64,000 bases of DNA from Euglena gracilis (taxonomy: Eukaryota). The position numbers and the translations under genes were made by a program. Of this stretch, positions 3,433 to 48,682 are shown piece after piece (the stretch's first letter is position 1; the number at the start of each line of letters is the position of its first letter). Location: assembly GCA_039621445.1 (NCBI GenBank), contig CP154954.1, positions 15,147,805 to 15,211,804 on the forward strand. The letters run 5' to 3'. The notes beneath the pieces are model-generated. The model searched no databases, was not told the origin of the DNA, and worked only from the letters and a program-made list of their open reading frames with translations.

Positions 3433-5757
3433 CTCCCCTTTTTTCCCAGTCCCTTTTTCACCTTGAGTTTTCCCATCAGGTCCGCTGCCAGCTCCGCGTA
3501 TCCTGGGATGTAGGAGGAGTAGTAGTTGGTGAATCCCAGGAATGCGCGGAGGGCTGTGATGGTTTTCGGGTCTTCCCACTTTTCCAGGGCCATCAGTTTT
3601 CCTGGGGCTGGTCTCCGTTGTCCTCCCCCCAAGATGTGTCCGCAGAATTCCACTTCATGCACAAAAAACTTACATTTTTTTATGTCGGCTACGAGCAGCT
3701 GTTTCTTGAGTGCCTCCATGACTCTGCGGATGTCCTTGTCGTGCTGGAGGATTGTTGCCTCTTCCGTTCCCTGCCAAACTGTGCCTACGATGATGTCATC
3801 TACGTAGGGGTTGGCAATGTCTGCGACCTCCTCCAGGCTGTATTCAATGACCCTCTGGAAAATTGGGACTCCGTTTTTCATCCCCATCACCACTACTTTC
3901 CACTGCTTCGTTCCTCTTGGTGTACTACAGCAGGTGTAGGGTCGGGATTCCTTTCTCATGCGTACCTGATGGAAAGCATCCTTTAGGTCCAACACACTGT
4001 ACATTGCTCGTTGACCCTGTTGGACCAAGATGTCTTCGATGCGGGGGAGGGGGTTTGCGTCTGTCACCGTGGCCTCGTTCAGGGCCCTGAAATACACCAC
4101 CCCCCCTCCACTTTCCCCCTTTCTTGGCCACCACTAACGTGGGGCTGGACCAGTCACTTCTCCCATCCTCCACCTTTTCATCCCTGACCCACTCGTCGAC
4201 CATGTCCAGGAGTGCCTGTCGGCGTTCTCCGGTCATGTGGATGGGTCTTTGTTTTTTTGCCACCGTCCCAGGTTTGAGTTCTATTTTCCCGAAACCCAGT
4301 GGACCCCGTTCAGGGGGGTTTGGGTAGATCTTGTCCCTCAACACCACTCCCTCGTAGTCTTTACGCAGCTTTGCGACCAAATCTGTCACCCTGTCTCCCT
4401 CCACAGCCTGCCCTTCAGGTACGGCTATCACCCCCTGGACCCCCTGTGGGGCTTTGCGTTTTCTGGTTACCAGATGCTGGGCCAGATTTTCCAAAACTGT
4501 TTCGTCTTCAAACAAAAATTCTTCCGTTTCACCTGCTTCTGCTGGCACCTGCAGGTTCATGGCCCGCACTTTGCTGATTTTCTTCAAAATGTTTCTGTCA
4601 CCCTGTTCCCGTTCTCTTACTCCTTTCCAACTTGTCAGCAGGAGCAATGGTTCCCCTATCAGGGCCAGTGAATGTAGGTGTGGAAAAACCCCTAAGTGGT
4701 GTTGCTCCATCCAGGGATACCCCAAAATGGCATCCACCTGGATTGCCGCGTCGTGGAAGGTCCCCGTGGTTGTCCATTCCCTTGTGTTGTCTTGGTTGAA
4801 AATCTGGGCCGTGAATTTCAGTGTTAGTGTCGTTTCATGCAACCCTCCCCCCATCCGTGTGCCGTCGGCAGTGACGAGGGCCAAGGGGTGGTTTGACACC
4901 GTGAAGGCTCCTGGGGGTAGGAGGTCTTTTCTGATCAGGTTGGTTTGGTTTGTTTCACCATTCGGGCAGACCGCACGAATGCCAATCAGAAGTTGCTTGG
5001 ACTTCCCCCGTTTCACCACCTGTCCCAACAGTCGTTCCGATGCTGGCCCAAGCAACCGTTTTGGCAGGTGAACGTTTTCATGGTGCCTCCGTGGGATTTT
5101 TGGCTGTGCCGCAGGCTCTTGTGTGTTTTGTTCATCTTTCCAACCAGCCAAATCTTGGATCAGTTTCTCTGGAATTCGATACTTTTTGTTTCTGGAAATA
5201 CTCGTCGTGTTTGAGATTTTCACCCGGTGACCCTTCTGTCCTGGCATCAGGTTGGGACATGTTCTCCCATCACACAGCTTTCCCTGTATTTGCAGGATAT
5301 CTGGGCTGCCCCAGATTCGTGTTGGCTTTTTGTGCCCCCAGTCGGAGTATTGACAATAATCCACATCAACAAATGGATATGGTTTCACGTACTCCCTGTG
5401 TCTGAGGTACCCGTGTCTGGGATTTTCCCGCCACCATTTCTGCGGTCGCAGGAATTTCACGATCTCCAGGGCCTTTTTGGCCAATGCGTCCCCCTTCTCC
5501 AGTTGTCTTGGTCTGGTTGTGAGTGCCAGGCTGAATTCCGTACAGGGAACTCCACAGTCCACCGTGTGGAATTCCCCAGGTTTCAAAACTTTCTTGTAGT
5601 CCCACGTCAAGACATCCACCTGAAAATATGCCTGCCACTTGGGGTCCAGGTCCACTGTCACCACCTGAAACCCCATTTTTTTGTATGCTTGGCCCACCGA
5701 CTTGGTACCACAGAAAAGGTCCAGCATTTTCCGTTTCGGTTCTGCTGCACGGTCCAA
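3433..5757 (-). pseudogene. pol: Pol part: C5-cytosine DNA methyltransferase (about 5757-5140) + aspartic protease lacking its DTG motif + reverse transcriptase, truncated
   Basis: LDLFCG, VDLD, GVPC, ENP, DYCQY..KPTRIW, RIPEKLI; ILGYPW; LPRIED, DLKDAFHQ, MGMKNG..FQR, YVDD, KCKF, FCGH, LRAFLG; extra C in homopolymer near 4100 (continuous in copy B2). Confidence 0.9.
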
Positions 5758-5766
5758 AACGTTTTT

Positions 5767-6555
5767 TCACGGCAGGTCTGTTTTCCCCAGTGGCTGGTGT
5801 TCATCACCCCCCTCCTCTGTCTCCAAAGGTGGAACATGTTGCACCGTCCCGAAGTTGACCTTGGACGTTGAGTGTGGGGGGGTCATGTGCTGGTGGAAGC
5901 CCGTCAGGTAATCACAGCGTTCCGTGTACCCACACACCAGCAGCACCTCCACTGGCCACTGTGTTTCCCTGCAACCCTTGTCGATCCTGCCAAAAAAATT
6001 GGTTTTTGCGGGAAAAGTCATGGACATGAGGGTCAGTTTTCTGGCCTGTGGGTACCAAACTCGGTGTTTCCACTGAGGCACCACCAAAACTGCGTGGGCC
6101 TGGTCTGTCTGAATTTTTTTGATCACCTGTGGGATTTTGTCGAACGGGGGGTTGATCCACAGGAGGCTGCCCTGCCAATTTTTTTGGAAGGCATCTGTGC
6201 CGTGTGGGCTGCCTGGTCCCCACCAACGCGGGAACCGCTTGTCCTGTTCTGTGGCGAAGGCATCCACCTGTGGTTGCAAACCGACATGTGAGATGATCTT
6301 TTTCACAAAACTGTCCTGCACATAGTACTGGTTGGTGATCCAACGGGAGGCTGCCCGCCCAAATCTGCAGCAAGCCTCCTCCCGTGGCACCTGAGTCTTT
6401 GTGTTTTGTCTTTGTCTGTTTTGTGCTTTCTGGTCTGAACCCCTGGCTCCCTTACCTCCCTCCGTTCGCTGTTTATGCTGTGGTAATGGCTCCTTTCTGT
6501 CCCCCTGTTCGGTTTGTTTTCTCAGAGAGTCGCCCCTCTCGTCCCCTCCCTCCAT
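5767..6555 (-). CDS. N6-adenine (amino) DNA methyltransferase-like ORF, DIRS-MT/phage Dam-like
   Basis: VDAFAT...DAF..NW...LWINPPF..IPQVIKKI..D.A.AVLVVPQW..RVW; NPPF at 6142-6153. Confidence 0.85.
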   Translation of the reverse strand: MEGGDERGDSLRKQTEQGDRKEPLPQHKQRTEGGKGARGSDQKAQNRQRQNTKTQVPREEACCRFGRAASRWITNQYYVQDSFVKKIISHVGLQPQVDAFATEQDKRFPRWWGPGSPHGTDAFQKNWQGSLLWINPPFDKIPQVIKKIQTDQAHAVLVVPQWKHRVWYPQARKLTLMSMTFPAKTNFFGRIDKGCRETQWPVEVLLVCGYTERCDYLTGFHQHMTPPHSTSKVNFGTVQHVPPLETEEGGDEHQPLGKTDLP

Positions 6556-6567
6556 ACCGCAGCTGCT

Positions 6568-9500
6568 TCACTTCTGCCCCTGGGCAGCAACCTGCTGTCC
6601 AGTCTGTGGTGCTGCTGTTTTCTGTGTCCACCGCGGTGGCTGTGGACACTCCCGTTTGAAATGTCCCGGCTGTTCACAGTTGTAACACCGTCCGTCATCT
6701 GGAGGTGGCCCGTACCTGGGCTGTCCGGTTGTCCCGGAGTTCTGTGTCGACTGCCAGGACGGTTGTCCTTTTCCTGAATTTCCCTTCCCGCTCCCCTTCC
6801 CAGACCCTTTTCCCTTGCCTTGGTCAGGATGCGAACCCTGTCCCTTGCCTTTTCCTTTCCCCTTGCTGTAATCCACAGTGGTCCAGCCTGCCCAGCTTTG
6901 GCCCTGATTTTGACTCTGTCCCTGATTGTAGGGGGCTGGGGGCTGGGGTTGTGGGGCACCCGAAGGCTGCCTTTCATTTTCCGGAGTCGGTGGTCTGGGT
7001 TTTCGGGAATTGGAACGGGACCGGGCAGGTGGGGGCGTTTTGCTTCTGGGTCGAGAAGAATTGTTTTCTTTCACCTCCCGGACATACCCCCTTTTGTCAC
7101 TGGATCTTGATCGATGTTCCCGTGGCTGGTTCTGCCACCCCCCGAAATTTTTTCCGAACGTGTCAGATTGTTCCTGACATCTCAGTTCTGTTTCCACCTT
7201 TGCAAACATCTCCTCCAGGGACAGCTTTGTTTGTACCACTGTGAATCTGGGTTGGTGTCCTGAGGCCAGGGCTGTGCCGTTCTTCATCATCAGCAGCTGG
7301 GACGCCCTGCTGCCGTTCAGGCTGATGATGAAATCAGTTCCGTCGGTTGTCACGAGGAACCTTTCGTCAGCCCCAAGTGTGGCTGCCACCAGTCTTGTTA
7401 CGTCTTCCCTGGTTGCGTCTGGGACCCCAGGTACGTTTGTCAGCCCCTTCAATTTCAGAGTGGGTCTGTCTTGGTTACTCCTGTCTTGTTCACGAATGCA
7501 GTTTCTGCGCATCATTTCGGGCATCCGTTCAGCGACCAATGCATACGCATCGTCTGTGGAGGGGTGTTCCAACCGACTGTAGAGCAGTTTGAAGCGTGCT
7601 TCAAACTCCCTCCATGCCCCCAGAGTCAGTTTTCCATCGTACCTGGGTTTCAGGTTTTTCAGCTCCTCCTTTATTGCCAGCTGGGTGTCCCCTTCGTACT
7701 TTTGGCAGAGCCAATTCCAAAATTCCTGATACCTGATTTTTTCCCCCCGTTCTTGTCGTCGCTGGAGCTCCAGCCGGCCCGTCTCGTCTAGGCTTCCCTC
7801 CAAAATTGTTAGTTTCATGTCATCTGTGAGGGGTCCCTGTCCAGCTGACAATCGGTTCAGGTAGATGGGAAATTTCACAGAAAAATCTGCAAAATTTCCT
7901 TGGACGAGCGGTCTGACCAGGTCTTTTGTCATGGCTGCACCCACTGGTCCCATCATCAGCCCAATGGAGGGGGCAGCCTGTGCTGCCACTGGGGCGACAA
8001 CCGTTTCTGCCCCCACATGAAAAATGGGTGTGTATGTGCTGCCGAATTGGGGACCTGCTGTGTTTTGTGGCCCTGGGTTTTTCTTCTGTCACCCATGTGA
8101 ACAGATCCCGCGTTCGTGGCTGTGAGATCTGGCTGGGACCTGTGTTTTCCCGTTGCTGACCCTGCTGTTGCATCATGTTTTTGATTTCCAACAGTTCCCT
8201 CTCCAGTCGCTGCTGGTGTTCCAGCATTGGGTCTGTCGGTTTCGGTCGAGGTTGAAAAGGTTGGGCGTCGGCTGAAAGTTCAAACACAGGTTGGGGTTTG
8301 GGGGGTTGGGTCTTTGACACGGGGGAGTCCTGTCGGATTGAAAGTTTTTTAAATTCTTCTTGTACCGTTTGCACCATTAGGGTTTTTAGGTCAGGGAGGT
8401 CCCAACCCACACCTGGCACAGGTTCTCGGGGTCCTCGGGTCCCCTCCCGGAGCTGTCCTGGGGGTCCTCGGGTCCCCTCCCTGGGCTGTGTTAGGGGGCT
8501 TTGGGGCCCCCAGCCCCCCGTTGGGGTCACTGGCTGTGGGGCCGAGGCTGCTGGCTGTGGGGCTGGGGCCGCTGGCTGGGGTCCCCCCAACCCCATCAGT
8601 TCTGCCCAAGCCTCCGGCTGGGGCCCAGATGCCAGCCCCTGCCCCGTGATGGCTGTGGCTGGGCCTGGGCTTCGCTGCCTTGCTGCAGCAGTTGGCTGGG
8701 GTTCTTGGGTTTGCCCCTTCCCGCTTGGCGGTTCTGTTGTCCGTCTGGACAACTGCCCCACTGGCCCAGGGGCTGGGGTTTCTGGGGTTTTCCCCATCCC
8801 CTGTTGCCGCCGGTCGCTGAGAGAGCTAGAGGCTGCTGAGAAAGAATAAGATTGAGATTTTTCAAAACTTTCTTTTGTCTTTTGTGTCAGTTCAGTCAAT
8901 TCATTTAATCTTTTTTCGGTGGCCTCCCATTTCGTTTGCCACAGTTGGTTCTGACTGTGGAACTCGGCAGTCAGCGATCTACACTGCTGCTGCCAAATTC
9001 CAGAGTCTTGCGCTTCTTTCAGTGTTGTTCGTGTAGTGAGGTCTGTCAGCTGTGCCTCCAACCGTCCCACCTTGTTTACCATCTGTCCCAGTGTGGATGA
9101 CATGTCGATCAACCTGGCCTGGTCACTGGCTTCCTGCGACCCAGTCTTGAAAACCCCCTTTTGCAATTCGCCCAGTACCCTCCTGAATGTCTGGGCCGAT
9201 TCCTCCACCTTGTGTCCCAGCCCGGTCATTTCCTGGTTCAGGCGGGCAAATCTTCTTTTGTTGTCGTCGTTTGAGGCCAGGGTGTCCAGACGTCTGGTCA
9301 AAATGGCCATTTCCTGTGAAAGCTTAGTCATCCGCTGTTCCAATGTTTGATCCTGTTGTCCCTCCGACAGTTGTTCCACCCTTGCGTTCAGCCCTTTCAT
9401 TGCCTTGGTAAAATGTTCTTGTGTTTGTTGAACCCTGTGGTTCAGTTCCTTCAGCGTCTCGTCACAGTTGCCTGCCAGTGTCCCTACCTGGCGTTCTGTC

Positions 9501-10029
9501 TCTGCCTCCCGTGATTTCACCTCCCGTTGACTTTCAGCCAACCCAGCCATTGTCTGTTCGACCCGCTGCATCCGCATCTGCAATTATTGAAGCACCTGCT
9601 CGTTTTGTTTCTGCTGGCCGAGTAATCCTATGAGGTGTTGCCCCTGGGTCTGTGTGCTTCCCCCTGCCACTTGCAGCAAACCCTGGAACCAGTTAGTTTT
9701 TTCGTCCAGCAGCCCAGCCATCACCTTCAGGTCCCGAATCTGTTGTCCCAGGTTCTCAAAGTGTCCCTGGTACAGTCTGTTTTGATTCGTCACCATCCCC
9801 TCCAAGTTTTCAGTTACCGTGGCCAGGTTTGTGGACAGCTCTTCATATCCGCCGTCTGTTCGCCACACCAACCCTTCTGTCCGTTCCCCCTGTGTAATCA
9901 GCTGCTGTTCCAAGCGTGTAAACTGTAGTTCTGTGTGTTTTGAAGTCGTTGTATCACCTCTGTGGTTTTCTGGTTCACAAACTCAGTGGCTCGCCTGAAA
10001 GTTTGCAATTCCTGCTGGAATTCCGTCAT
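6568..10029 (-). pseudogene. gag: Gag with long coiled-coil N-terminus, GKG-rich segment and CCHC zinc knuckle (copy B1, with indels/stop)
   Basis: CYNCEQPGHFKREC; collinear with the uninterrupted 1153-aa ORF 49484..52945; breaks near 9935, 9585 and 8080. Confidence 0.85.
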
Positions 10030-10787
10030 GTTCTGTACGAAACTGGACCACCAGTTTGTGTCGGCGAACCAGTCGTAATGTTCTGGTCCGCCTCAGATTC
10101 CTCCACCCCTGCACCGTTGACCTGGAAGTGGTCTTCGTTCGGGCTCTGTCTTGCCGCTTCCAGGCTCAACAGTTGGTTCTGAGTGTCTGTGCTGGGTTCT
10201 GGGTGGAATGTGAGCTGCAGTGGCTGTGTTTCCTGGTAGATGTCTCCCAGTTCGTCGTCTTCGGCGTCCGTGAACTGTGTCGTCCCTGTTTCCTCCTGAG
10301 TCCTGGGGTTCTGTTCCCCATCTTGTTCCATTTCAACCATCGCAATTGTCATCTGCGACAATTGTGCAATGTCAACGTCGCACCCCAGGGTCCTGGCCAT
10401 GTCTGTGGTCGTTTCTGTGTCGTATTCCCATTGTTCAGGTTCCTGGTTCCATTGCAAGTTTTCTGGGGCGGTCATTGTGAATTCTGTCATTGTGATTCCT
10501 GTTGCTGGGGCATTGAAATGGACATCTGTCTCTGAACCAGCCGACCTAGCGACGGCTGATGAGACAGATTCCTGTGGTTCTGTGGTATTTTCCTGTTGTT
10601 CAGTCCAGCCGCCTTCGGGGGAACTGAAAATGGGCAAAAACCCTCTGCTACCATTTGTACGGGATAACCCCCTTTGCTGCTCCGCTTGTTCCAGGTCCGT
10701 GGGGTTTCCCTGTCCCCGCGTAGGATCGATTACCCTGCCCAGTTGAATTTCAATTCCCCGCGCGGCCTTTGTTAAAAATTGTTTCAT
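10026..10787 (-). CDS. Upstream acidic 253-aa ORF (Gag N-terminal part or ORF0), starting inside the 5' LTR
   Basis: Open in both B copies; ATGA stop/start overlap with gag; reads through the PBS as NGSRG. Confidence 0.55.
   Translation of the reverse strand: MKQFLTKAARGIEIQLGRVIDPTRGQGNPTDLEQAEQQRGLSRTNGSRGFLPIFSSPEGGWTEQQENTTEPQESVSSAVARSAGSETDVHFNAPATGITMTEFTMTAPENLQWNQEPEQWEYDTETTTDMARTLGCDVDIAQLSQMTIAMVEMEQDGEQNPRTQEETGTTQFTDAEDDELGDIYQETQPLQLTFHPEPSTDTQNQLLSLEAARQSPNEDHFQVNGAGVEESEADQNITTGSPTQTGGPVSYRT
10641..10653 (-). promoter_or_regulatory. Primer-binding site, initiator tRNA-Met type
   Basis: TGGTAGCAGAGGG 2 nt after LTR-end CA; complementary to the ...CCUCUGCUACCA 3' end of eukaryotic tRNAi-Met; same 12-mer in family D. 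Confidence 0.85.
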
Positions 10788-11359
10788 TTTCTTGTGTTAA
10801 AAGACCTTTTTCCTTTTTGGGGTTGGTGTGGGGTGGGTCCTTGGGGGGGTCACAAATCGGGCATAAAACACCTGTAGGTCTTGCTCAAAGCAGCGAAATG
10901 CTTTCAAATTGGTGGTCGTGGTCAGTGAAGGTCTTCGGTGCCGGCGAACTGGCGCTTCTTAGGCACACCAGCAGCAACAACTCCTGCTTCAGACTTCACT
11001 TCAGATCACAGGACCAATGCTTGAACAGATAATCAACTTCCACTTCCAATGAAATCTTGACAAACTTGAATTGGCTTGAAACTTGAACCAAATAGGCCAA
11101 TGGCAAATAGATAATCAGATTGAGCAAGGACAGAGTAGTGACAGAGCCCTGTGGAACATGTTGTAAAATCGTGGTTAAAATCTGGTCAGAGGTTAAAATT
11201 CAGTTAGGAGGGGATTATCCTAATTGTTTCACCATTGAAACTGTAGGCCCCTGGTTGGGTCAAGTCCCCTGGTTAGTTCTGTGGGCGCCTGGGTTAGCTT
11301 TTAAGGTTAGCGCCTGAGGTTAGCTAACTTACCCGGGCACTCAGCACCCCTGACTCACA
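10656..11359 (-). repeat. 5' LTR of B1 (about 704 bp)
   Basis: TGTGAG start at the insertion boundary, ...GTACA end followed by PBS; no 3' LTR remains for comparison. Confidence 0.75.
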
Positions 11360-11821
11360 ACCGGTGGGTGGGGACGAGGAACTCCCTCAGGAAGGCGAGA
11401 ACGTGAAGGATATCCTCTACGCTGCTCTACCTGCACCGGCACAGCCTCGGCCAGACGAAGCACCCACTGAGGATATACCTGTGACTGCAACGCCTGTCCC
11501 GACGGCTGAGCCTCAACCCGAGGTGACTGGTATGGTCGTCGAGGATATCCTCGAAGAACCTACCAGCCCCGCAGCACGCACCTCATTAGGAGGCCGCGTG
11601 CTCGGCGCCGTAGTCACCGGCATTACTGCCGTGGCTGCTGCACTAACGCCACGAGGTGGATGCGTAGCATCAAGCTCCGCCGCTGAGGTCGTGGAGATGC
11701 CGGATGTCGGCGTCCCTGCACCCCCATCTCCGGCAGAAGTGCAACCACCGTTAGGGGATGAACCCCTGCCGACAGAGACAGCTGTCGCACGGCTACAACG
11801 GAGGTTCCACCTCCCTAGCAC
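11360..11821 (+). mobile_element. Family A copy A1, right part (ORF Z Pro/Ala-rich segment) up to the gap
   Basis: Matches 40442-40900 and 54276-54740. Confidence 0.85.
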
Positions 11822-11834
11822 NNNNNNNNNNNNN
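11822..11834. other. Assembly gap (13 N)
   Basis: Run of n characters. Confidence 1.
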
Positions 11835-12004
11835 CAACCTCCCAGAAAAAGCGCAGGCACCGCCCCGGAAACACCCACCCCCCCCCCGCTGTCGGTGGTT
11901 ATCCACGACGGCGAGGACCCCCACGGGCCCTCGGCCCCCCGGGACTCGCCGGTCTCGAGGGCGACCGGCGGCGCACAGTGGGGGGTGGCGGCGAACATGG
12001 TCAT

Positions 12005-12240
12005 GGTCGCAGAGGTTTGTTCTGCTGGTTCTGCCAGCAGAATCATTGAGGATTTTTCAGATTCGGTGAACATTGTGGCAGAGATTTGTTCCGCTGGCTC
12101 TGCCAGCAGAATCAGTGCAAAGTTTTCAGATTCGGCTGACATCGCAAGCAAAGGTTGTTTCACTAACCCAGTCAGTGAAAATTTTTCAGAGACGGTCGAC
12201 ACGGTCACAGAGATTTGTTCTGGTGGCTGTGCCAGCAGAA
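12005..12240 (+). repeat. Three imperfect coding repeats (E[V/I]CS.G.ASR)
   Basis: cagag(g/a)tttgtt...gg.t.tgccagcagaat at about 12010, 12079 and 12208. Confidence 0.8.
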
Positions 12241-12899
12241 TGGTGCACGAGGTCAGTTTCATCAACCCAGTGGTCTGTGAATTTTAAGAAGAATCTGCAG
12301 AAATCTGCTCGTTTCCCAGCAATCTGTCCGAGTTTCAGATTGTGATGAAAATTTTCTGAGATCTGTGGCAGAAAGCTGTTTTCAGAACGAAAAGGAAACT
12401 GAATTTTCTGCAGCCCAGTTTTCAGAACCTGTGGCATCATTGCAAATCATGATGGAATCTGTGGCAGAAAACAATTTTCAGGCTGCAGAAACTTTATCGG
12501 CTTCAGGATTTTCAGAAACGACACAGGAATCAGAATCTGATTCTGATTCGGGGAGGGGGTCATTTACATGCATTAGGCCCATCACGGTGGTAGGGCCAGA
12601 AAATTTACAACTGGTTCCACTGCATGGCAGTGACGACGAATCAGACCCCCCAGGTTGTGAAAGCGAATCAGAGGAAGAAAAACAGGCTGAAAACGCAATT
12701 ATTCAGCAAATGGTTATGCAAAGAATGAAAGCTGCTGGCATGTGGCCAGTAAATTTTTCAGGTTTTCAGCAAATTTCTGTGTCGTCACGAGACAGCAGCC
12801 CAGGGCCAGAACAAAAAATTTTGTGTTTAACAGCCCAGCCAGAACCATTGCTGTTAACACAGAGTTCAGAATCGCAGTCAGCACAGCCAGCTGCAGCCC

Positions 12900-13265
12900 A
12901 GCTGCAGGTTTTTCAGCCAGCCCAGCCGTTTTCGGCTGAGATATCTGTCCCAGCCCAGATTCCTGGGCAGGTTTTTCACCCAGCCCAGCAGTTTTCGGCT
13001 GAGTCATCTGTCCCAGCAATCATGGAGCCAGCCCAGATGACTTTACAAGGTTTTTCAGTCCAGCCCAGCAGTTTTCGGCTGAGTCATCTGTTCCAGCAAT
13101 CATGGGGCCAGCCGAGAGGACTTCAGAGTTTCTACATCCAGCCCAGCAGTTTTCGGCTGAGTCATCTGTTCCAGCAATCATGGGACCAGCCCAGATGCAT
13201 GGGCAGGTTTTTCAGCCAGCGTTAACAGTGTCTTCAAACACAGGCCCAGCCCAGATTTTTCAGCC
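12900..13265 (+). repeat. Four or more imperfect 60-80 bp coding repeats (PAQQFSAESSVPAIM)
   Basis: cagcccagc(a/c)gttttcggctgag recurs near 12917, 12981, 13061 and 13139. Confidence 0.85.
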
Positions 13266-18372: not shown

Positions 18373-21007
18373 ACGGGACTAGGAGGCCTGCACCGGGTAA
18401 GTTACGAGCGATCGAAAAGTGGGAGGTTCCAAAAACAATTACGGCTTTGAGAGCCTTTTTGGGATTCACAAATTATTACAATGCATACATTCACATGTAT
18501 GCGGAAGTGGCTGCCCGACTGCAAGACAAATTGAAAGTCCCCAGGGAGGTGGGAAAGAAAGGAAGTCGAAAACCTGTGGAATTTGATGGGGAGGATTTAA
18601 AAGCTTTTGAGGAGCTGAAAAAAAGGTTGTGTTCGGGCCTAATGTTGCAACGGGTAGACCCAGATAAACCCTTTGTGCTAAGGGTTGATGCCAGTGGGTA
18701 CGCCGTGGGGGCAACGTTAGAGCAAATGAAGGAGGGGGGAGGAAGACCCACAGCCCAAGATGTGATTGAGAAAAAAACTGTGCCAGTGGCTTTTATGTCT
18801 CGAAAATTGACCGAGGGGCAAAGAAAATGGACCCCCAGGGAGTTGGAGACGTACGCCATAATTTTGGCACTACAAAAATGGGAAAGTTGGATTGGATTGC
18901 AACCCGTTTTGGTTTTAACCGACCACCAAAGTTTGGAGTCTTGGACAAGGGAAGTCCTAGACACCCCCAGTGGTCCGGTTGGGAGGAGGGCGAGATGGCA
19001 CCAAATTTTCTCCAAGTATGATTTGACGGTGGGATATATCCCGGGTAAAGAAAACACCATAGCCGATATCCTTAGTCGGTGGGCATACCCAGCTTCACAG
19101 GCCCTAAGGGACATAAGTAAGCACGGGTCAGCCGAAGACAAGGATGAAATGGAAAATTTTATCCGGGAGGAAAAAGAAGAGGAAAAACAGTGTTTGGAGA
19201 TAAGAATCAAAAACCAGCCCAATTTACGTAATGCCTGGATACGGGGGGTGACAACCCGTAGTGGCAAAAACGTAACACCTGAGGAGGAAAAAGGAGAGTG
19301 CACAAGGAGGGGAACCGAGGGTGGGGTAGACCCAGGAGGAAAAGACACCCCTGTGGACACCCACTCACAAGGGCCCAGGAAAGAAAAGAAACGAGTTCAT
19401 TTTTGGGATGAGAAAGTGGGGGGGGAGACGACCCCTGTCCCGGAGACGGCTGAAAGTTCGAGGGGGGACACTCGTATGGAAGTGGGGGACGCCCTGCCAA
19501 GTACGACCCCTAAGGATATTAAGCCCGTATGGGAGCGTGATTGGGGGGAAGCATATTCCCACTGCCCCACATGGAAAGAAAAATGGGTAGCTACCAAAGG
19601 TGATTCAATTTGGCCAAAGGGCTTCAAAGTGCTAAATGGCCAATTGTTTTTCGAGGAAAAGTTGTGTGTGCCTGAAAGTTTTCAACACTTGGTGATTCAA
19701 GAAATTCACGAGTTTTTGGGGCACGTTGGCCCTGAAAAAGTTTGGAAACACATGACAATCCGTTTTGTTTGGGCTGATGAAAAGGCTGCAAAGCAACTCA
19801 ACCAAAATTGCAGCAAAAATTGTTCCACATGCCAAGCGAGTGTGAGGGGGGAGAGTTTGAAAGGACCGATCGAGTCCACACCCATACCCCCTGCACTAAT
19901 GACAAGTGTTGCCATCGATTTGTTTCGAATGCCAAGGGTTTTACACGATGGGGGGGAGTACGACACCCTAGCCCTTTGTGTGGATAGGCATTCGGGTTGG
20001 ATTGTGGGGGTTGCATGCAAGGACAAGGGATTAACCGGTGCCAAGTTGGCTAAGGAAATGGTGAAAAATCAGTGGAGGCCTTTTGGGGTTCCCTCGGTCA
20101 TCTCAAGTGACCAAGGGAGCCATTTCACAAGCACTTGGTGGAAAAACATGTGTGCACTTTTGGGGATTAGGCAGGCGTATTCCCAAGCGTACCACCACCA
20201 AGCAAACGGGAGGGTTGAGAGAGCCGGACAGCAGGTAATGGAGGTGTTGAGAAAATTGTACGTGGAGGAAAAAATTAATTGGGTTGAAGCTTTACCCCAA
20301 GTTTTGGACCGAATTCACGACGTAAAGGGGGAAAGCGGATTGAGCCCATATGAAATTGTGACTGGAAGGGAAAGACCATTAGCAGGGGTACCCTACCAAC
20401 CACCCAAAGAATGTGAGGATTCGGTGGAGTTTTTCCATAGGATGCAAGACATTGATGGGAGGGTGGCTAGGATACTCAACAAAAAGCATGAGGAGGAGGT
20501 GGCAAGGATAAATAAGGGGAGGAAAGAAATGGAACCCCTAAAGGTGGGGACGACGGTTTGGTATAGGAGACCCGAGGGGTCGGGTGAGAAGCTTGACTCT
20601 AGGTGGGTGGGACCTGGGGTCGTGAAGGGTAGAGAAGGGGAACGGAGTTATGTAATTGAGATGAAACCTGGGGTAGAGACAAAAGCTCATAGGAGTTTTT
20701 TGAAGGAATATCGGGAACCCCAAGTTGAAGGTAAGGGGGTGCCTCTTTTTATTATAAACGGACCGAAAAAGAAGAACAGGCATTACCTGATGAGTGGGAG
20801 GTGGAAAAAATTCTAAGGCACCGGAAAGGAAAAGATGGAAAATGGGAATTTTTGACCAAGTGGGTCGGATATGAGGACGGGGAGGAGACCTGGGAACCGG
20901 CTGGAAATTTCATTCACAGATTCAGTGAAGAGTTTGTGAAGTATTGTCGTGAGAAAAAAGTGAAAATGGACATAATGTCCGAATTAAAAATTGATGGTGG
21001 GCCGTAG
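18373..21007 (+). pseudogene. pol: Pol C-part: RT connection, RNase H, integrase (HHCC, DDE), chromodomain; frameshift near 20750
   Basis: LRAFLG, VDASGYAVGA, ELETYAI, LTDH; H..GH...C..C, AIDLF, SDQGSHF, NGRVER, WVGP; VEKILRHR..EFLTKWVGY..ETWEP. Confidence 0.93.
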
Positions 21008-24660: not shown

Positions 24661-25159
24661 ACTTTTGAGGTCCAATCAATTAAACTTGAATGAATAATCA
24701 ATAATACTCAATGACTTGAACTTGTTTGCTTGAACTTGTTTGATTGTTGCAAATGCAAACACAATTGAATGCCAAATGACAAATAAAACAGAGTGTAAAC
24801 AGAGCCCTGCACAGAAAATGTGCAATTGGAGGGAGGCTACAGCTGGGGGGGCCACTTGGTATACTTTGCGCAATTCTTAATGAATTGCGCCATCCCAAGC
24901 GCCCACCAAGGGGGTGCGCATGCTTGCGCAAAGCCCAGCAGGGCTTGCACATCCCCTTGGGGGTTGCCTGTTGGCCCCCTCCAACTGCCCCCTCCTTTAC
25001 CTTCCCTGGCTTGGTCAAAATGGACTGTGGGGCCCCCTTGGGGGCCAGTGGGGCCTCAAAAGGCCCTTGGGGACCTTGGAGCCCCCTCGCGGCCCTTCGT
25101 GGCCCCTTTGGGCCCCCTTGGGACACCACCTTGGGGCGGGCACCCTCGGACCGCGCACA
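24491..25159 (-). repeat. 5' LTR of element D (about 669 bp)
   Basis: TG...CA ends bounded by PBS; shares CAGGGCTCTGT with the B LTR. Confidence 0.7.
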
Positions 25160-28100
25160 AGCTGGAATTCTGCTGGAATTACTTGCAGGAAGTTGGCAAA
25201 TATTGCCAGAGGAATTTCGAAAGTGCGGGTATTGACCTTGCAAACTATCGGGAAACCTTTGACAAAATGTGCCAACAACTCCCGCAACACTTCCGGCAAA
25301 TTAGTGAATGCATGCATGAAGCGGAAACGCGGAATGACTCCAAGTTTCTGCACTTGCATGACTCACTACAACGGTTATCGGGACAAATGGAGTCCTGTTC
25401 ATCCGCGTTGTTGCATTTGCAACAACAGTTGCATGCACGAGATTCCTCGTCTGCAACATCCAACAGTGGTGTATTTGTGTCTATGGACCATTTCACCACA
25501 TTGTCCGCAACTTTCCATGAATCGCAACACCGCATTATGCAGTTGTGCGATGAAACGGAAAAGTTTCGGCAATTCCAGTCACAAGCCAACGAGAATTTTG
25601 CTCCCCACACGTATGTGTGGCAGTTGGAGGAGCGACTTTCCCGTTTGGAGCAGAAAACCTGCTATTGTGACTCGAATCGGGTTGGATTATCCAATCTGAG
25701 CGCGAAAGTCGCGGAAATGGCACAACGGCAGGATTCCCTGCAGTTGCAGTTGCAACCCGACATTGGCGGGATTAACTCGGCCATTGCGGGTTTGCAACAA
25801 AGCTATTCCGCACTTTCCCACCGAGTTCCGGACATTAGCGGCATTCAGACTGCTATTGGAGAACTCCAGACCCGGTATGCATCGGTGTCTACCAAAGTAA
25901 CGGAAATGCAGTCTCTACCTGCAGGTTCCAGTTCTCGGATTACCGAGAACCCTGATTTCAAGGCATTTTATGACAAAATGCTCACTAACAATCAGGAAAC
26001 CTTGCAAGATTTCTGCAACAGCCTATTACGGCTTGAGGAATCGGTGAATCGGAATGCCCGATCCACGCAAAGTGAGATTACCAGGTTGGATGAGCGAATT
26101 TCCGCGTTGTTGGATAACCCACAACCTGGAAATTTGCCCATGGGTACCACAACCGTGTTGTCGGATAACCCTGCACCGGTTGCACCCACCACCACACCAA
26201 CCAAGGTGACATCACCCTTGCAGATTCTCTCAAATGCTGTAAAAGCATTAATGGGACAATTCCAATTATTGGATAAGTCTCACGGGAAACTTGTCCAAGA
26301 TGTTACCGGAATTTCCGAAAGGATTCCGCACTTGGATGACTTTTCCCGTTACCGCAAGCGTATTCGCGCTTTGGAGGATCAAGTTGACCGTATTTGCGGC
26401 CAACTCCAATTCGTTGAGCATTTGGAGCAAAGTGTGCATGACTTGTCTGTGGATTTGGATAATGTGTCCAACCAACAGCGGGTTTCACACCGCAATTCGG
26501 CAGTATGCATTGCCGAAGATGCGCCAAATGTTCCAGAGTCGCGTTTTCATAACCCGGCTCTGGGTGCACATGCACCACCACCACCCGTGTCCCGAGTGTC
26601 ACAATCCGCGATCCGGCGAATTGTGCCACCATTGGCCTTGTCCACAACCCAAAACCAGTTTTCGGATGAATTTCCCATTACGGGAACCGAATTCGCGGAA
26701 AACACGGCGATTCCGCCAAGTCTCCACCAAGAAATCCGTCATTCCATGCTTGTGCGTGGAATGAGCCAAACCCGTACACCGGGAGTGGGTCACATGTTGC
26801 ATGCGCGACATACCCCTACACCGGAGAGTCTCCCTAGTACGGGTGACCAACAGGGTTTGCGACCGGATTTCCGGTACCAGGATTCACCTTCACCAGAAAT
26901 TTCGCGATTCCGACAAGAATCCGGAAAGGATACGCTTGGTGCTCGAGCGTACCCGGGCCCGAATCCACGGAATACGACCGAGGGCCAACGGGTTTTTCAG
27001 AAAGACTTCAAGGGCACCATCGCAATCGCGAATAAGGTGAAACCCCAGTGGGATGGTGATCCAACCACATGGAGACAGTTTTTCCGGGACTGGGAGTACT
27101 ACTGGGCATTGAAAGGGCCAACCCAGGACACAAACCCGGAGGTGATCAAGATAGAATTCATCGATTGCCTCCCTAGGGATGAAAAGGAGCGCGCGCGACA
27201 ACTCGTCATTCGCTACCGCGTTTCCTTTGATGACCTGGTGGAGCAATACGCTTCCACCAGTTCAAGTTTGGTCGCTAGGATTACCCTGGAGACCAAGTGG
27301 CGGCAATGCGCCCCACCAGACCGCAAGTGGAAGTCCATTGACCTTTGGTATGCCAAATGGTTGGGACTTGCCGCTGAAGTGGATTAACTCAGTGAAAAGC
27401 AAATGCGCGAACAGTTTGACGCTGTTCTAATGCATTTCACGCCTAGCCTCATCAAGGATATCCATCGTGAGGAGTTGGCCGGTAATGCAATGACTCTTGA
27501 CCAACGCTGGAACTACGTTTCCAAGCAATTGAAGCTATCACAGCTTCTTGGTCAGATTCAATCCGCGTATACCGCACACCCAACCGCTGGATTACCGGCT
27601 GGTTCGGTAAACGCATTGCAAAAATCACCGGTTTCACCTACTTCACCCACCACGGGATCGAAAACGCGATACCCGCGTTCTTCGGACCAAGCCACGGATA
27701 AAGTGTGCTTTGTGTGCAACAAATCGGGACATATGTCTCGGGAATGTCCTAATCCTGAAGCGCGTAAGCGTATTCAGAGTCCGCGAGGCTCGACCTCATC
27801 ACGTGGTTCGGGTTCCTCCGCGTTTTCACGCCAATCGGGCAATTCACGGTCATCGGGTCCCCGTTACGGTGGTATTAGCCCCCGGATCCCGTTCCGCGAT
27901 GAGCGGAAACACGGTACCCCTCGGGGTAGGTCACCCGGTGCCCTGGCCAAGAAGCGTGATTCTCATCGCGAGACATCGCGATCGCGTTCGCGAAGTGGAT
28001 CATCCTCTTCGCGATCCTCATCGGGAAAACCCCGATACACCGGTCACGGTCGACGGGATACCCAGTCACCACGACGGTTTGCCGGGAAATCGGGAAACCG

Positions 28101-28437
28101 ATCCCCCCGTTACCCAGACTCGCGACACAAATCTCGGCGTTCGCTTTGTGGATCGAGTGATCACCACTCATCCAAATGTCCGCGTTCTCGTTCTCCCCGC
28201 CCTGGCCAACGTCATCGCGGTATGAATCGCGGTGACAAGGGTCACTCCTCCAACCGCCATAAAGTCGGTTTCAAGATATCTTGTTTGGAGGATGACACCC
28301 CGGCTTCAAGCAGGGAGGGGGATGAGACCACGGATACCGATTTCGACGAGGCCCGCATGGCGGTGCGCACGTTGAAATCCGTTTATACCTCTAAAAGGCC
28401 CATAGCCGGCTATTCGGCCGGTTCGGACCTGGAGTAG
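25160..28437 (+). pseudogene. gag: Gag of family E (coiled coil, capsid-like core, CCHC knuckle, SR-rich tail)
   Basis: KPQWDGDPTTWRQFFRDW, CFVCNKSGHMSREC, degenerate second knuckle; internal TAA at 27385-27387; TAG at 28435-28437. Confidence 0.85.
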
Positions 28438-31400
28438 GGGAGCCCGAGGTCCGAGGGCACGGACCTCTGGGCTGATGAACAGATGGAGGTAGGACCTGAT
28501 CAACCCTGCCCCCCCTGCCCATCTGCCTTCCTGGTCGGTACCCGGAAAATTTTCGGGTCCCCCACCCCCCACTCCAACTTTCCGCTCGGAATGTTGTGCA
28601 AAGTAGGAAAGGGTTCATGGGAAAGCTGGCAAGAAAACGTATTTTCGCCAGACCCTTCACTTTGCTTACCCCCCATGGAACTTTTGGTCCAAGCGGAAAT
28701 CAAAATCCAAAATTTTTGTACAAAAGTCAAAATTGTCATTGACACTGGTTGTCGCATTGCACTACTTTTTCGGTTCGGGTTGATACCAACCCCCCTCTTG
28801 GTGAAAGCCAAGAAGCCGATCAAAATTACGACGGCTGACAACACCCTCATGTGCGGTGGTGACTTGGGATGCTTTTTGGACATTGTCCTACCCCTCATCC
28901 CCAAGCACCACTCACACCCCCCCCAACCGCAAAATTTTCCGGATACCTGGGGATATGAATCCGGAATCCATGGTTCTGACGTAATCCTGGGATACCCCTT
29001 TTTACGTCAGCACCGGCCGGTAGTGGATTGCCACTCCCACGGTTCGCGCACATCACCATTCTCCTCATTGCCCCCCAAACCCTCATCACCTGTGGCGTCA
29101 ACCGCGATAGCCACCAATTTTTCCACACCGTTTTCGAAAACTTTTACCCCGTTACCAACCACACCAACCAACGTTTTCCACACCGGGTGTACCGAGAAAG
29201 TTCACCCCCTGCCCGTTGACACACTAACTTCCGTTCCCCGTGAGGCAGGGCAAGCAAGTAGCGGTACCCCCCTCGTTCCACTGGGTTACAAGACGAAAGT
29301 CCAAAGGACTGAAGTAATCACGGTGTCGAGTAGTCGCCCAGCTGCACTAATACCACGTTTTCCACCAGATGTATCGCTTTCAGATACATCTGTACACCCC
29401 CCAGCAGCTACAAAAGCGCATCCCAACTTTTACACACACCCCCACCAGACCAACATGCGCGACCAGGACCACTACTCCGACACTTCCTTCCAATGTGTGC
29501 ACTGTAGGAGAATTTCCGCCCAGCCAGATTTCGATTGTGGATGTCTAGTCCAAACACCAACACTAATCCCGATTTCGCGTAACCATACACTTGGTTGCGG
29601 ATCGCAATGCGCGACCGTACATCAAGTGCTCCAACAGCGAGGTATTGCCTTGTTGTTCGGGACCGCGAAATCCGTGTCACACACCTCCCCCACCTCCATC
29701 TGGCATGATATGGACTGGGTATGCACCCATCCAACCCATCAACCCTTGGGAATGCCCCTTGGGAGTGTGGATGACACACCCTGGACCTATGTTTGCGGAT
29801 CCCTGAATTGCGTTACCGCTCTTCAACCCGCGAACCAGGTCGACACCTACGCGATGCGCGTATGGAACGCATTTAAATTTGGTCAATACCGTATTTTGGA
29901 GGAATGCTTCTCCACAATCGCGGCTTTGGCTGATTCCTTCGATTTGTCGTTGGAAATTGATGCGTTCTCATCAAAAGCGCATGCGCGCTTGTCGCGATAT
30001 TGGTCGACATTCAAACACATTTCTTAAATTCTGGGGTGATACGGTGCTATGGATGCACCCTCCCCCAAAACTTATCCCGGATGTGGTGGAGAAAATCCTC
30101 CGCGATGAAGCGCGAGGAGCTCTCCTCATACCCGTCAATCCGAATGCGGATTGGTTTCACCAACTATCCCATGTGTGTTTTCATTGGTGGGATTTACCCG
30201 CTGATGTACCACTATTTGAGGATTTTTGTGGTATATTATTACCACCTGTTAAAGAAATCATTTTTCGCGTTTGTTTCTTTGACGCATTCGGAATATCCGA
30301 TGTGCGTGTGCCAAGATACCTTGGCACCAATGGGGATGCCACACCCTCAACGCAGATTTCTGCGGTCATTGAGAGTGCGGACCAACATCCCAAGTCTGCT
30401 GATTATTGTTCGCGAATTGCTCGCGAATTTTATGGTGTACTGGATAATCCAGTTTACGCCTGCGACATCGACCCCGCGATTCGCGGTCCGTTCGGTGTAT
30501 GCAAAATCGAGCTCAAGGATGGCGCTAAACCCATGCACCAGAAATTTTTCCGTTGTTCGGGTGAACGCGAACAGGCTCTCAACGAGATGATTGAGAAGCT
30601 CATTCAGCGGAAGTGGATTATCCCTTCCAAGAGCGAGTGGACATCACAAGCTTTTGTGGTGCCCAAACCCGCTGACCAGTCTGGTCAGAAGAAGTGGAGA
30701 CTGGTGCTGGATTACCGGTACCTGAACTACCAAACGAAGGATGACCCCTTCCCGTTACCGCTGATCGAGGATTTGATCACAAAACAATCGGATAACCGGT
30801 TGTGGTCAATCTTTGATCTGGAAGACGGTTTCCATCAGATGCATTTGCATCCTGATTCGCAACCGTACACGGCATTCGTGACATCCAAGGGTGTGTACCA
30901 ATGGACGGTACTCCCCATGGGTGTTAAGAATGGCCCAGCCATGTTTCAACGCATGATCCAGTGGGTTTTGCGCGATTTACCGTTTGCTCTGGTGTACATC
31001 GATGATGTACTGGTGGGAACCCAACCGCCATCCGCGAAATCGGGCGAGGATATCCTCGACCCGCATTATCGCGATGTGCGCGCGGTATTATCCGCGTTCC
31101 AAAAGCATGTGCTTTTTGTGAAGGGTTCCAAAATGCACCTGTTTCGCAAAATTATTAAGTTTTGCGGACACATCCTGAGCAACGGGCAGCGTAAAGCCGC
31201 ACCCAGTAAGATGGAGGCCATTAGGAAATGGACTCCTGAGGTCATTAAGACCTTAACACATTTAAAAGGATTTTTGGTATTAGCCTAATATTACGCGATT
31301 TACATGAAAGATTTCGCGAAAATCGCGGTACTCCTAACCCGACAACTCAAACATCGGACACCCGATAACGCAAAAGTCATTTGGGATGACCAAATGCGCG

Positions 31401-32317
31401 AGGCCTTGAATAAAATCAAGGACTTGCTCCTCGAGAACGTGGTTCTCGATATCGCGGATCCATACAAACCGTATGTCCTGGAGGTCGACAGCAGCGATTA
31501 CGCTGTTGGCGGGGTTCTTAGCCGGCATAATGCGGCAAAGGAACTCCGACCTGTGGTTTTTTTCAGCAGGAAGCTACAGGGCGACAACGGGAAAGGACAG
31601 GTTAAATGGAGCATTCGCGAAAAGGAGACATATGCCATTGTGCTAATTCTCCAGAAATTCCGCAGCTGGATAGCCAGCAGCCTTGTCCAGATATTGGTGT
31701 TGACGGATCATGAAGCCTTCAACACTGGTATACCGAGGACCTGAACAAGGCCATGTCATCAGTTGGCAGAAGATGCCGATGGCATGAGTTCTTGAGCCAG
31801 TTTAACCTGGTGGTAGTTTATACCCCAGGTCATACGCAAAAGGTTGCGGATCCTCTCAGCCGAGCCCCCTGGTATTGTCCTGGGAACCCGGATGAGGGTG
31901 ATGCGACTTTTCATGGCAGCCATGAGGCTGACCAGTTCGCACGTGGATCCGACGCTGCGGACAACATGCTCGATTCACTACCGGTTTCCCGGGTGTATCG
32001 CAGCATCGCCATTTCACCATTGCGTGGAAGGCGCCGGCGTGGACGCACTGCCGGACCCCGTCGCATTACGCGTACGGAAACTCCTACCCCCCTATTTTTC
32101 CGCGAATGGGATTATTCGCGTGACCCTATATATAGTACCATTGTGAATAGACTTCGTAATGGTGAATCCATAGAGAATTACTCTCTATCACCATTGCGGC
32201 TTATTTTCCGGAATGATTCTGGTTATAAATATATGTATACCCCAAGACCTGGTTGATGATGTGATTTTGAGCTATCACAACCATGGTCACCCTGGGGCCC
32301 CCAAACTGCTTTCACTA
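28438..32317 (+). pseudogene. pol: Pol of family E: protease, spacer, N6-MTase-like domain (about 29880-30290), RT, RNase H, integrase N-terminus
   Basis: VIDTG, ILGYPFL; IDAFSS..W..LWMHPPP.LIPDVVEKI..LLIP..W; LDYRYLN, DLEDGFHQ, YIDD; VDSSDYAVGG, EKETYAI, LTDH; YHNHGHPG; frameshifts or stops near 30020, 31287, 31716 and 32235. Confidence 0.9.
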
Positions 32318-48673: not shown

Positions 48674-48682
48674 AACGTTTTT

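Follow-up and report, generated by a model that had tools for sequence, protein, structure and literature searches.

Retrotransposons that carry their own writers of 5-methylcytosine (5mC) and N6-methyladenine (6mA) are a recent discovery. Here, we deal with a stretch of 64,000 nucleotides from Euglena gracilis (GenBank assembly GCA_039621445.1, contig CP154954.1, positions 15,147,805 to 15,211,804 of the forward strand; “the window”), in which remnants of three Ty3/Gypsy-type elements, termed B, C and E, contain a Dam-like N6-adenine methyltransferase (MTase) domain (N6), in two of them together with a C5-cytosine MTase domain (C5), at different positions relative to protease (PR) and reverse transcriptase (RT). 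Besides de Mendoza et al. 2018, full-text searches of the literature gave one directly relevant source on such elements (bioRxiv 10.64898/2026.05.21.726589, May 2026); all statements on this preprint and on PMC5890265 refer to the portions of these texts that were available. The preprint defines DAM-LTRs, i.e., long terminal repeat (LTR) elements of the Ty3/Gypsy or chromovirus type with a Dam-like MTase, and “EpiLTRs”, the subset in which this DAM is joined by a cytosine MTase (DNMT) and a chromodomain. It describes a conserved Asn-Pro-Pro pocket as well as modular evolution, and derives a single eukaryotic DAM clade with repeated transfers from DIRS to LTR elements.

Cytosine MTases alone are known from two further retroelements (PMC5890265). 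In KnitGypsy-Dnmt3 of Klebsormidium nitens, the Pol of a Gypsy element includes a C5 MTase, the catalytic residues of which are conserved; however, this MTase is Dnmt3-type and host-derived, and no adenine MTase is reported in the portions cited. SymbioDIRS-Dnmt3 occurs in two coexisting Pol domain orders, which sets a precedent for permuted MTase positions, but it is a DIRS element that encodes a tyrosine recombinase together with a Dnmt3-type domain, for which these portions give no Dam-like partner. At the level of the single domains, the MT domain of DIRS elements and the Dam of T1-like phages belong to the same family as the N6 of the window (Pfam PF05869), with an NPP[FYW] motif; the N6 domains of the window are 24.6–34.4% identical to T1-like phage Dam, but in the elements considered here the domain is placed in Gypsy polyproteins, at five or more slots. 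The putative cytosine DNA methyltransferase of Tetraselmis virus 1 (UniProt A0A2P0VN45; 218 aa) has the same size and fold as the C5 domain, yet is a stand-alone viral gene outside any polyprotein.

Compared with these systems, the region of B, C and E (3433-32317) is a pile of dead copies of three related but distinct Ty3/Gypsy (chromovirus-like) LTR retrotransposon lineages. The combination of C5, N6 and chromodomain that defines EpiLTRs is found in C; B has C5 and N6 but lacks its 3' end, and E has an N6-like domain only, its relatives combining DAM and chromodomain as in DAM-LTRs. We consider it likely that C5 was captured once, that the layouts are lineage traits which arose by modular rearrangement and recombination between lineages, and that N6 was exchanged or re-inserted among them. 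The kind of element is thus already known, and what is added are the layout permutations, the viral affinity of C5 and the decay in the E lineage, none of which was found in the main-text portions of the preprint. According to these portions, dual-MTase elements have one configuration per host, in contrast to at least eight orders here; their DNMT is sister to DNMT4 (a comparison drawn from the preprint's text), in contrast to the viral-like C5 of about 200 residues here; and one DAM-only lineage here differs by a degenerate catalytic motif.

The anatomy of the window was established from stop-to-stop open reading frames (ORFs), Pfam scans, and profile hidden Markov models (HMMs) built from database relatives (“local HMMs”), which were searched on the six-frame translation; its overall character is that of eukaryote-like repeat debris. 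Element B lies within a further element, A, which is described below, and consists of the following parts.

3433..11360, minus strand: element B, copy B0, a 3'-truncated Gypsy-type remnant (ORFs, stop codons, and junctions with A by self-BLAST)
6640..6690, minus strand: gag zinc knuckle, CCHC (Pfam zf-CCHC, 6.2e-7; residues 467-483 of ORF 6568-8088)
5932..6330, minus strand: Dam-like N6-adenine MTase, motif NPPF (local HMM, 4.3e-44; Pfam PF05869, 3.5e-5)
5143..5730, minus strand: mini C5-cytosine MTase, motifs FCG..G, PC and ENP (local HMM, 3.4e-84; translation)
4660..4947, minus strand: protease remnant (local HMM positions 27-122 of 126; alignment with the database protein P0023)
3534..4106, minus strand: reverse transcriptase (local HMM, 6.1e-84; Pfam RVT_1, 2.6e-23)
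46023..54276, minus strand: element B, copy B2, 99.5% identical to B0 and with the same junctions (self-comparison)
48848-49246, 48059-48646, 47577-47863 and 46452-47081, minus strand: N6, C5, PR and RT of B2 (local HMM)

B0 reads gag, an in-frame TGA, N6, a second in-frame TGA, C5-PR, a frameshift, and RT. Its gag frame is long and rich in charged and glutamine residues; the DTG stretch of PR, which is kept in the closest relative P0023, is absent, and the element terminates at 3433 right after the RT thumb, with neither RNase H (RH) nor integrase (INT). B0 and B2 are duplicates of an already dead composite. Element C is arranged differently.

11835..21000, plus strand: element C, with gag, C5, N6, PR, RT remnant, RH, INT and chromodomain (Pfam, local HMM, translation)
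16306..16896, plus strand: mini C5-cytosine MTase (local HMM, 8.4e-96; PF00145, 2.2e-4)
16930..17316, plus strand: Dam-like N6-adenine MTase, motif NPPW (local HMM, 1.9e-51; PF05869, 3.1e-10; tblastn to T1-like phage Dam)
17437..17808, plus strand: aspartic protease, DTG present (local HMM, 1e-45; translation)
18369..18464, plus strand: RT remnant, thumb only (local HMM positions 182-213 of 213)
18591..20195, plus strand: RNase H and integrase (Pfam RT_RNaseH 2.6e-24, Integrase_H2C2 1.1e-6, rve 1.3e-10)
20795..20929, plus strand: chromodomain, one frame off the integrase frame (Pfam Chromo, 2.6e-11)

C has several frameshifts. A single frame (16150-18450), following the gag frames, contains C5, N6 and PR; the RT core is deleted, the last 32 of the 213 profile positions being left, and no Pfam match to zf-CCHC was reported in the gag frames. 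The third element, E, carries an N6-like domain between PR and RT.

24799..32317, plus strand: element E, with gag, PR, spacer, N6-like domain, RT and RH (Pfam, local HMM, translation)
27703..27753, plus strand: gag zinc knuckle (Pfam zf-CCHC, 7.3e-6)
28681..29043, plus strand: aspartic protease, DTG present (local HMM, 2.3e-22; translation)
29044..29886, plus strand: spacer of about 280 aa (Cys motif common to the relatives P0084-P0086; no Pfam match)
29887..30223, plus strand: Dam-like domain, motif HPPP, split by a frameshift (local HMM, 3.9e-4 and 3.1e-19; alignment with P0084-P0086)
30623..31276, plus strand: reverse transcriptase (local HMM, 9.5e-87; Pfam RVT_1, 4e-27)
31289..32256, plus strand: RNase H and start of the RH-INT linker (Pfam RT_RNaseH_2, 2.8e-24; tblastn to C RH-INT residues 9-264)

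The gag of E is divided by an in-frame TAA into two frames and is followed by an in-frame TAG and PR; another TAA separates RT and RH, so that, together with two frameshifts and a truncation before INT, three in-frame stops interrupt the element. The N6-like domain lies in one frame from 29887 to 30009 and in the next from 29975 to 30223. The in-frame stops, frameshifts, deletions and truncations shared out over B, C and E make transposition impossible for these copies themselves. As a cause of the in-frame stops, an alternative genetic code was considered and rejected, because all three stop codons (TGA, TAA and TAG) occur in frame; moreover, the stop position between N6 and C5 of B is read as sense in the aligned relatives.

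The three orders had first been proposed in an earlier note made from the letters alone, and all of them were recovered: N6, C5, PR, RT in B by local HMMs and Pfam in two copies; C5, N6, PR, RT in C by the same means, with the RT as a remnant only; and PR, spacer, N6-like domain, RT in E by local HMMs, which gave no C5 match anywhere in E at E≤1 on six frames. The motifs quoted there were likewise read from the translations, namely GVPCTEFSLA / GVPCTEYSLA and DYCQYSDWGHKKPTRIWGS / DYCQFSDWGYQKPTRIWGS for C5, and NPPF (B), NPPW (C) and HPPP (E) for N6. The backbone follows the Gypsy Pol order, i.e., PR, RT remnant, RH and INT in C, PR, RT and RH in E, PR and RT in the truncated B, and PR-RT-RH-INT in the relatives of E; RVT_1 as well as zf-CCHC is matched in both B and E.

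The C5 module is a predicted mini C5-cytosine MTase of about 200 residues with motifs I, IV (PC) and VI (ENP) and an invariant Cys/His cluster, the latter standing at the place of the target recognition domain (TRD), and its viral homologues are of the same size. Matches to PF00145 (cut-off 22 bits) stay below the threshold in the window, with 21.2 bits in C and 16.8 bits (4.7e-3) in B2, and exceed it in the relatives P0001 (25.3), P0008 (25.4) and P0023 (22.6 bits). The catalytic residues are kept: all 80 filled rows show PC and all 82 show the E of ENP, motif I is for the most part intact, and motifs I (FxGxG), IV and VI are conserved in 75–82 of the 82 rows. Four residues vary hardly or not at all among the 82 domains, namely the Cys of DYC, both Cys of CDGxTC and, some 10 residues downstream, a His; this cluster is possibly a zinc site.

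The N6 module is assigned to the Dam-like N6-adenine MTase domains (PF05869) and spans about 130 residues. Against the cut-off of 28.1 bits, C scores 40.4 and B 24, the latter thus lying below it, and no PF05869 match was obtained in the E frames; among the relatives, P0001 (41.3), P0008 (34) and P0023 (31.9 bits) are above. A PDB sequence search with the N6 frame of B gave chance matches only (E 0.82). The resemblance of the three N6 domains of the window is beyond chance, because their pairwise local alignment scores (153, 105 and 80) exceed those of shuffled sequences (means 27–29, maximum 51; 300 shuffles each). Canonical NPP[FWY] motifs are found in 32 of 34 N6 domains that are accompanied by C5 and in 109 of 116 fragments with N6 only.

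Structural comparison agrees with both assignments. In the AlphaFold model of the C5-N6 pair of C (mean pLDDT 86.5), the C5 half is matched by Foldseek to the catalytic domains of DNMT1, DNMT3 and M.HhaI (E about 3e-7, probability 1.0) and to the putative C5 MTase of Tetraselmis virus 1 (36% identity, TM-score 0.83 on the target, root-mean-square deviation 2.2, E 3.8e-18), and the N6 half to phage N6 MTases (about 1e-6). In a language-model atlas, C5 is closest to clusters of small viral C5 enzymes. Searched against phage genomes by tblastn, N6 hit 661 records, the 15 rows listed being annotated as Dam-type and stemming from T1-like phages (24.6–34.4% identity), and C5 hit 41 records of C5 MTases of about 200–260 residues, 30 of which cover at least 80% of the domain.

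That the layouts are more than peculiarities of three broken copies becomes evident from their relatives. Searches with the MTase region of C yielded 83 proteins and those with the N6 region of E another four (87 in total); the 83 are nearly all from metagenome assemblies, one partial hypothetical protein being filed under Genlisea aurea. When C5, N6, PR and RT were mapped on the 87 proteins, 22 different domain strings emerged, such as C5-N6-PR(-RT), N6-C5-PR, PR-N6-C5(-RT), N6-PR-C5(-RT), PR-C5-N6, C5-PR-N6, PR-N6-RT, C5-PR-RT, PR-C5-RT and RT-C5, with at least eight layouts within one C5-bearing group. Six layout examples are independently confirmed by Pfam, among them RH-C5-INT-chromo in P0057, and N6-PR-C5-RT is encoded on DNA in a single 1297-aa frame of contig L011. 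Each of the window layouts recurs in single uninterrupted frames: that of B in P0019, P0023 and P0024, that of C in P0001-P0004, and that of E in P0084-P0086 and P0238-P0252. On the C5 tree, layouts cluster (B-type, 5 rows at 98; C-type, 6 rows at 93; PR-C5, 13 rows at 96), and they do so on the RT tree as well; on each of three matched 21-taxon trees, six layouts require 6 changes, the minimum being 5. Because each of them recurs in independent database proteins, the B, C and E layouts are, as far as these sequences tell, inherited lineage traits and did not arise privately in the copies of the window; the case which the earlier note had named as speaking against its proposal, namely that single copies were rearranged after insertion, does not apply. 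Where that note spoke of relocation for the adenine MTase, C5 moves too; it is found in no fewer than three slots, i.e., ahead of PR, between PR and RT, or between RH and INT.

For the origin of C5, metagenome contigs were scanned for the pattern of an alignment (A3), which gave 80 loci; an earlier metagenome scan with a single protein had found no relative. Of these loci, 13 are retroelement-like, with a GC content of 0.46–0.63 or with PR, RT or N6 beside C5, and 67 lie on low-GC contigs (0.23–0.42) with a stand-alone C5 frame of 204–300 residues, the product of which is 31–41% identical to the retroelement C5 domain. In the stand-alone locus L024, the C5 gene (6998-7627) lies 5 kb from a gene (12528-13949) with the N-terminal domain of a major capsid protein of the type found in nucleocytoplasmic large DNA viruses (NCLDV) and polinton-like viruses (Capsid_N, Pfam), and none of nine scanned neighbour proteins of this C5 gene matched a PHROG family. 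Capsid homologues are present in 13 of the 80 loci. Further loci of the low-GC, stand-alone kind are L020, L022, L025, L030, L033, L034, L043, L044, L050, L060 and L067. In a C5 tree of 93 rows (41 from retroelements, 49 stand-alone with full-length domain, 3 from phages), all 41 retroelement rows fall on one side of one branch (Shimodaira–Hasegawa-like approximate likelihood ratio test, SH-aLRT, 97; stand-alone 87; phage 98), which fits a single entry of C5 into the retroelement group at this sampling and upholds the single capture proposed in the earlier note. The data also fit aquatic double-stranded DNA (dsDNA) viruses of eukaryotes as the nearest stand-alone holders of C5, whatever the direction of transfer. 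Unlike the MTase of KnitGypsy-Dnmt3, the C5 of the window groups with small viral enzymes, in a tree that contains no Dnmt3 rows; the cytosine module points to a viral rather than a host donor.

The history of N6 is less straightforward. With a profile built from the three N6 domains of the window, 6330 representatives were retrieved at E≤1e-3, of which 959 were left at 1e-10 and 58 at 1e-30; of the best 147 new representatives (P0088-P0234), 130 have a Pfam Dam match at E≤1e-3. In these 147, Dam-like domains alone on short frames make up 112 entries. Many “orphan DAM” genes are also noted in the portions of the preprint cited here (bioRxiv 10.64898/2026.05.21.726589), and such genes may mostly be retroelement debris. 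In the N6 tree, rooted on four T1-like phage Dam sequences, all 65 retroelement rows form one group, which agrees with the preprint, where the eukaryotic DAMs constitute a single clade. Within it, the C-type joins PR-N6-C5 elements (22 rows, 99), the B-type lies in a 13-row clade (97) together with PR-N6, C5-PR-N6 and PR-C5-N6 forms, the E-type (5 rows, 99) is placed among C5-less PR-N6-RT forms, and a support of 98 unites P0015/17/18 and P0042/51. The RT tree, made from 23 rows by a careful search, is arranged otherwise: the C-type P0001 goes with C5-PR-RT forms (100/99), P0008 and P0042/P0051 share one C5-downstream clade (96/98), and the E-type stands apart (100/99).

The separate RT, C5 and N6 trees proposed in the earlier note, with phage homologues included for C5 and N6, are thus in conflict, and a single N6 clade congruent with RT, the other outcome named there as contrary, was not obtained: the N6-tree groupings are rejected by the RT data in approximately unbiased (AU) tests (p-AU 1.9e-5 and 5e-4). 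For 30 elements with both MTases, the C5 and N6 alignments each reject the maximum-likelihood (ML) tree of the other (log-likelihood loss 160, p-AU 1e-6; loss 189, p-AU 3e-80), and in the 21 elements that possess C5, N6 and PR, each module rejects the ML trees of the other two, with losses of 154–188 for the N6 alignment, 86–104 for PR and 66–95 for C5. A further AU test, in which 10 N6 rows were kept together, was discarded as invalid, since these rows have unclassified fragments nested among them. On the PR tree of these 21 elements, C5-upstream and C5-downstream forms are separated by one split (ultrafast bootstrap, UFBoot, 82), corresponding to 1 change, and the RT tree also fits a single change; for the same trait, the C5 tree demands 3 changes and the N6 tree 4. 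We read all modules as mosaic in their evolution, N6 most strongly. Because its history cuts across that of the backbone, N6 would have been exchanged or re-inserted several times. As to the repeated gain or relocation of the adenine MTase that had been proposed, the incongruence of N6 with RT, PR and C5 stands, but three captures from outside do not, the 65 rows being one group against phage Dam.

Such captures are the core of the alternative that survives best, which we regard as unlikely: each lineage would have acquired N6 separately from outside Gypsy, e.g., from co-resident DIRS elements, a source that the preprint favours for DAM-LTRs overall, the three slots being three insertions. It could draw on the placement of B-, C- and E-type N6 in three well-supported subclades (97, 99 and 99) that straddle the PR/RT backbone split, and on the preprint, the available portions of which derive four or more transfers from DIRS to LTR elements and depict a complex situation in one host. 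However, all 65 retroelement rows stay together against phage Dam, in a tree made without DIRS sequences, and a tyrosine recombinase or another DIRS mark was found in none of the best 147 N6 representatives, those with a context showing Gypsy-type PR, RT or C5.

Still less probable, in our judgement, is purely vertical descent, in which both MTases are ancestral, a few rearrangements in cis and losses explain the orders, and the tree conflict is an artefact of short, fast-evolving domains. The near-monophyly of the layouts on every tree would be expected under this view, and the mutual rejection of C5 and PR suggests that the tests are over-sensitive. Pairwise identities in the window point in the same direction, since N6 (30–39%) is no more diverged than PR (29–34%), with 50.5% for C5 of B and C and 42% for RT of B and E; the earlier statement that N6 is much more diverged therefore holds relative to C5, but not relative to PR. 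Against vertical descent, the conflicting groups are strongly supported on both sides (99 and 98 on the N6 tree, 100/99 and 96/98 on the RT tree, where the partners are assigned to separate clades), and the log-likelihood losses that involve N6 (154–189) exceed those of C5 versus PR (66–104). That the differing orders are mere artefacts, i.e., assembly chimeras, nested insertions read as one, or private rearrangements of dead copies, is highly improbable and already contradicted by the recurrence of each layout, without interruption, in single frames of proteins and contigs that are independent and come from several sources, even though the window is nested, duplicated and N-gapped, all three copies are broken, and the preprint, in the portions cited, warns of such artefacts in one host.

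Several points weigh against single C5 capture, layouts inherited by lineage and N6 exchange as we prefer them. The alignments are short (130–215 columns), the majority of the large trees come from quick searches supported by SH-aLRT alone, and the groups in the AU tests of RT versus N6 were named after the trees had been seen. The four T1-like phage enzymes serve as outgroup of N6 without DIRS or other eukaryotic DAM, and because this is only one type of outgroup, the single Gypsy N6 group is a weak statement. C5 and PR, too, are mutually rejecting (p-AU 0.0024 and 2.7e-7), and as all three modules reject each other's trees, the contrast between backbone and mobile module is one of degree. 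The database proteins are fragments; C5 aligns with only the first third of PF00145 (profile positions about 2–120 of 324), with no TRD and no motifs IX–X identified; contigs from RNA libraries, to which we come below, may stem from DNA; and, according to the portions of bioRxiv 10.64898/2026.05.21.726589 cited here, heterologous expression of DAM transposable elements gave no rise of 6mA in E. coli.

Element E deserves separate consideration, as its lineage departs from the catalytic consensus. P0084-P0086, which are relatives of E, share with it PR, the spacer, N6 and RT; the spacer between PR and N6 bears a C-x2-C ... C-x-C motif that is conserved in these three proteins. Of 22 proteins from a search with the tail of E, 8 have the order PR-N6-RT and none a C5 match, and 7 of these 8 run on to INT and chromodomain (precomputed Pfam, PF00385). 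NPP[FWY] is canonical in 23 of 37 C5-less PR-N6 forms; the other 14 read HPPA (twice), HPPL, HPPS, HPPP, HPMF, NPPI (three times), NPPV, NPPL, NPSL, NPHY and NAPF. With the exception of NAPF (P0175), which lies just outside the E subclade, these non-canonical motifs (13 of 14) belong to the closest relatives of E, and six of the E-subclade domains concerned are contained in open polyproteins of 1313–1805 residues. Because the degenerate motif occurs in long open polyproteins of relatives, HPPP reflects a tendency of the lineage that goes beyond decay in a single copy. Probably, the E-type domain is no canonical adenine MTase; it may not be a working MTase. A recurring selection for the adenine MTase, as suggested in the earlier note, does not fit this lineage.

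At the boundary of gag and pol of E (28435-28446), the in-frame TAG is followed by GGG. This context resembles the read-through signals of some retroviruses.

Taken as a mechanism, the orders would have arisen by modular rearrangement and recombination between element lineages, the position of C5 relative to PR having changed once and the N6 module having been exchanged or re-inserted several times across lineages. In active members, the MTases may be released from the polyprotein or act within it, and could methylate the complementary DNA of the element or its new insertions, which would thereby acquire host-like 5mC and 6mA marks; such a self-methylation model is found in the portions of PMC5890265 and bioRxiv 10.64898/2026.05.21.726589 cited here. 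In the E lineage, the Dam-like domain without canonical tetrad would probably be non-catalytic or have taken on an altered role. A more specific version, which we put forward tentatively and hold to be somewhat less than an even bet, is that the mini C5 derives, by a single transfer, from a giant-virus or polinton-like dsDNA virus of protists and later came to occupy at least three slots, that the Dam cassette was swapped among lineages into at least five slots, and that E would keep the Dam fold without the catalytic tetrad as a non-catalytic retroelement domain.

The MTase modules are portable cassettes for which many positions in Gag-Pol are tolerated, and this constrains their release and use. 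Lineages with both modules, with one, and with a probably inactive one form a natural comparison set, and a comparison of methylomes and expression across such lineages in one host could test self-methylation directly. There is also a value for annotation, given that the modules are mostly near or below the Pfam cut-offs and that metagenomes contain thousands of orphan “Dam” ORFs.

Copies of the elements are abundant in public data. The pol region of C is present in 20 runs from 16 studies of one organism, and 111,766 contigs of one DNA run map on 12400-32317. In a leaf-litter metatranscriptome, all 30 bins of this interval are covered by pieces of 474–981 bases. At several of the frame breaks and stops of C and E in 12400-32317, most other copies differ by a letter or by an insertion or deletion, and several lesions are, because of this, private to these copies or to a subset.

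The remainder of the window concerns the surroundings of the three elements.

1..3432, plus strand: element A, the host of B, a chromovirus-like remnant (self-comparison)
34245-41161, plus strand: uninterrupted unit of A (self-comparison)
36401-37084, plus strand: INT C-terminus and chromodomain of A (Pfam/tblastn)
11822..11834, no strand: assembly gap of 13 N (sequence)

B sits antisense within the plus-strand element A. In self-comparison of the window, 1-11821 corresponds to 42814-54739 at 99.5–99.8% identity, so that the antisense B remnant is found in two A units with identical junctions; because of these junctions and of the identity of the units, the composite of A and B was duplicated as a block. 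The gap of 13 N falls exactly at the meeting point of the A/B block and C, and the adjacency of the two is therefore unverified. No direct repeat pair was detected around B, C or E by self-comparison of the window; as the copies are truncated or abut the gap, the missing flanking LTRs are a property of the copies and not of the families. The three elements had been described as co-nested, which stands for B inside A but, owing to the gap before C and the lack of LTR pairs at B, C and E, is shown for that case only.

Tandem A units share a 362-bp repeat (34247-34608, 40800-41161 and 54634-54995), and A-related stretches include 54632-56738. On the minus strand, 22699-24675 is an open frame of 658 residues that is rich in proline and glutamine and weakly matches an envelope-protein family of baculoviruses; it gave no significant Pfam family and no second copy within the window, and could represent the gag of another element, “D”. 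Observed/expected CpG ratios of 0.52 (B), 0.55 (C), 0.47 (D frame), 0.96 (E) and about 0.8 (A) show the copies with C5 to be those poor in CpG, which, at one copy each, is no test. Two tandem arrays accompany C, one downstream at 21422-21872 with 8 copies of a period of about 48 bp, and a shorter one upstream in the gag leader at 12900-13220.

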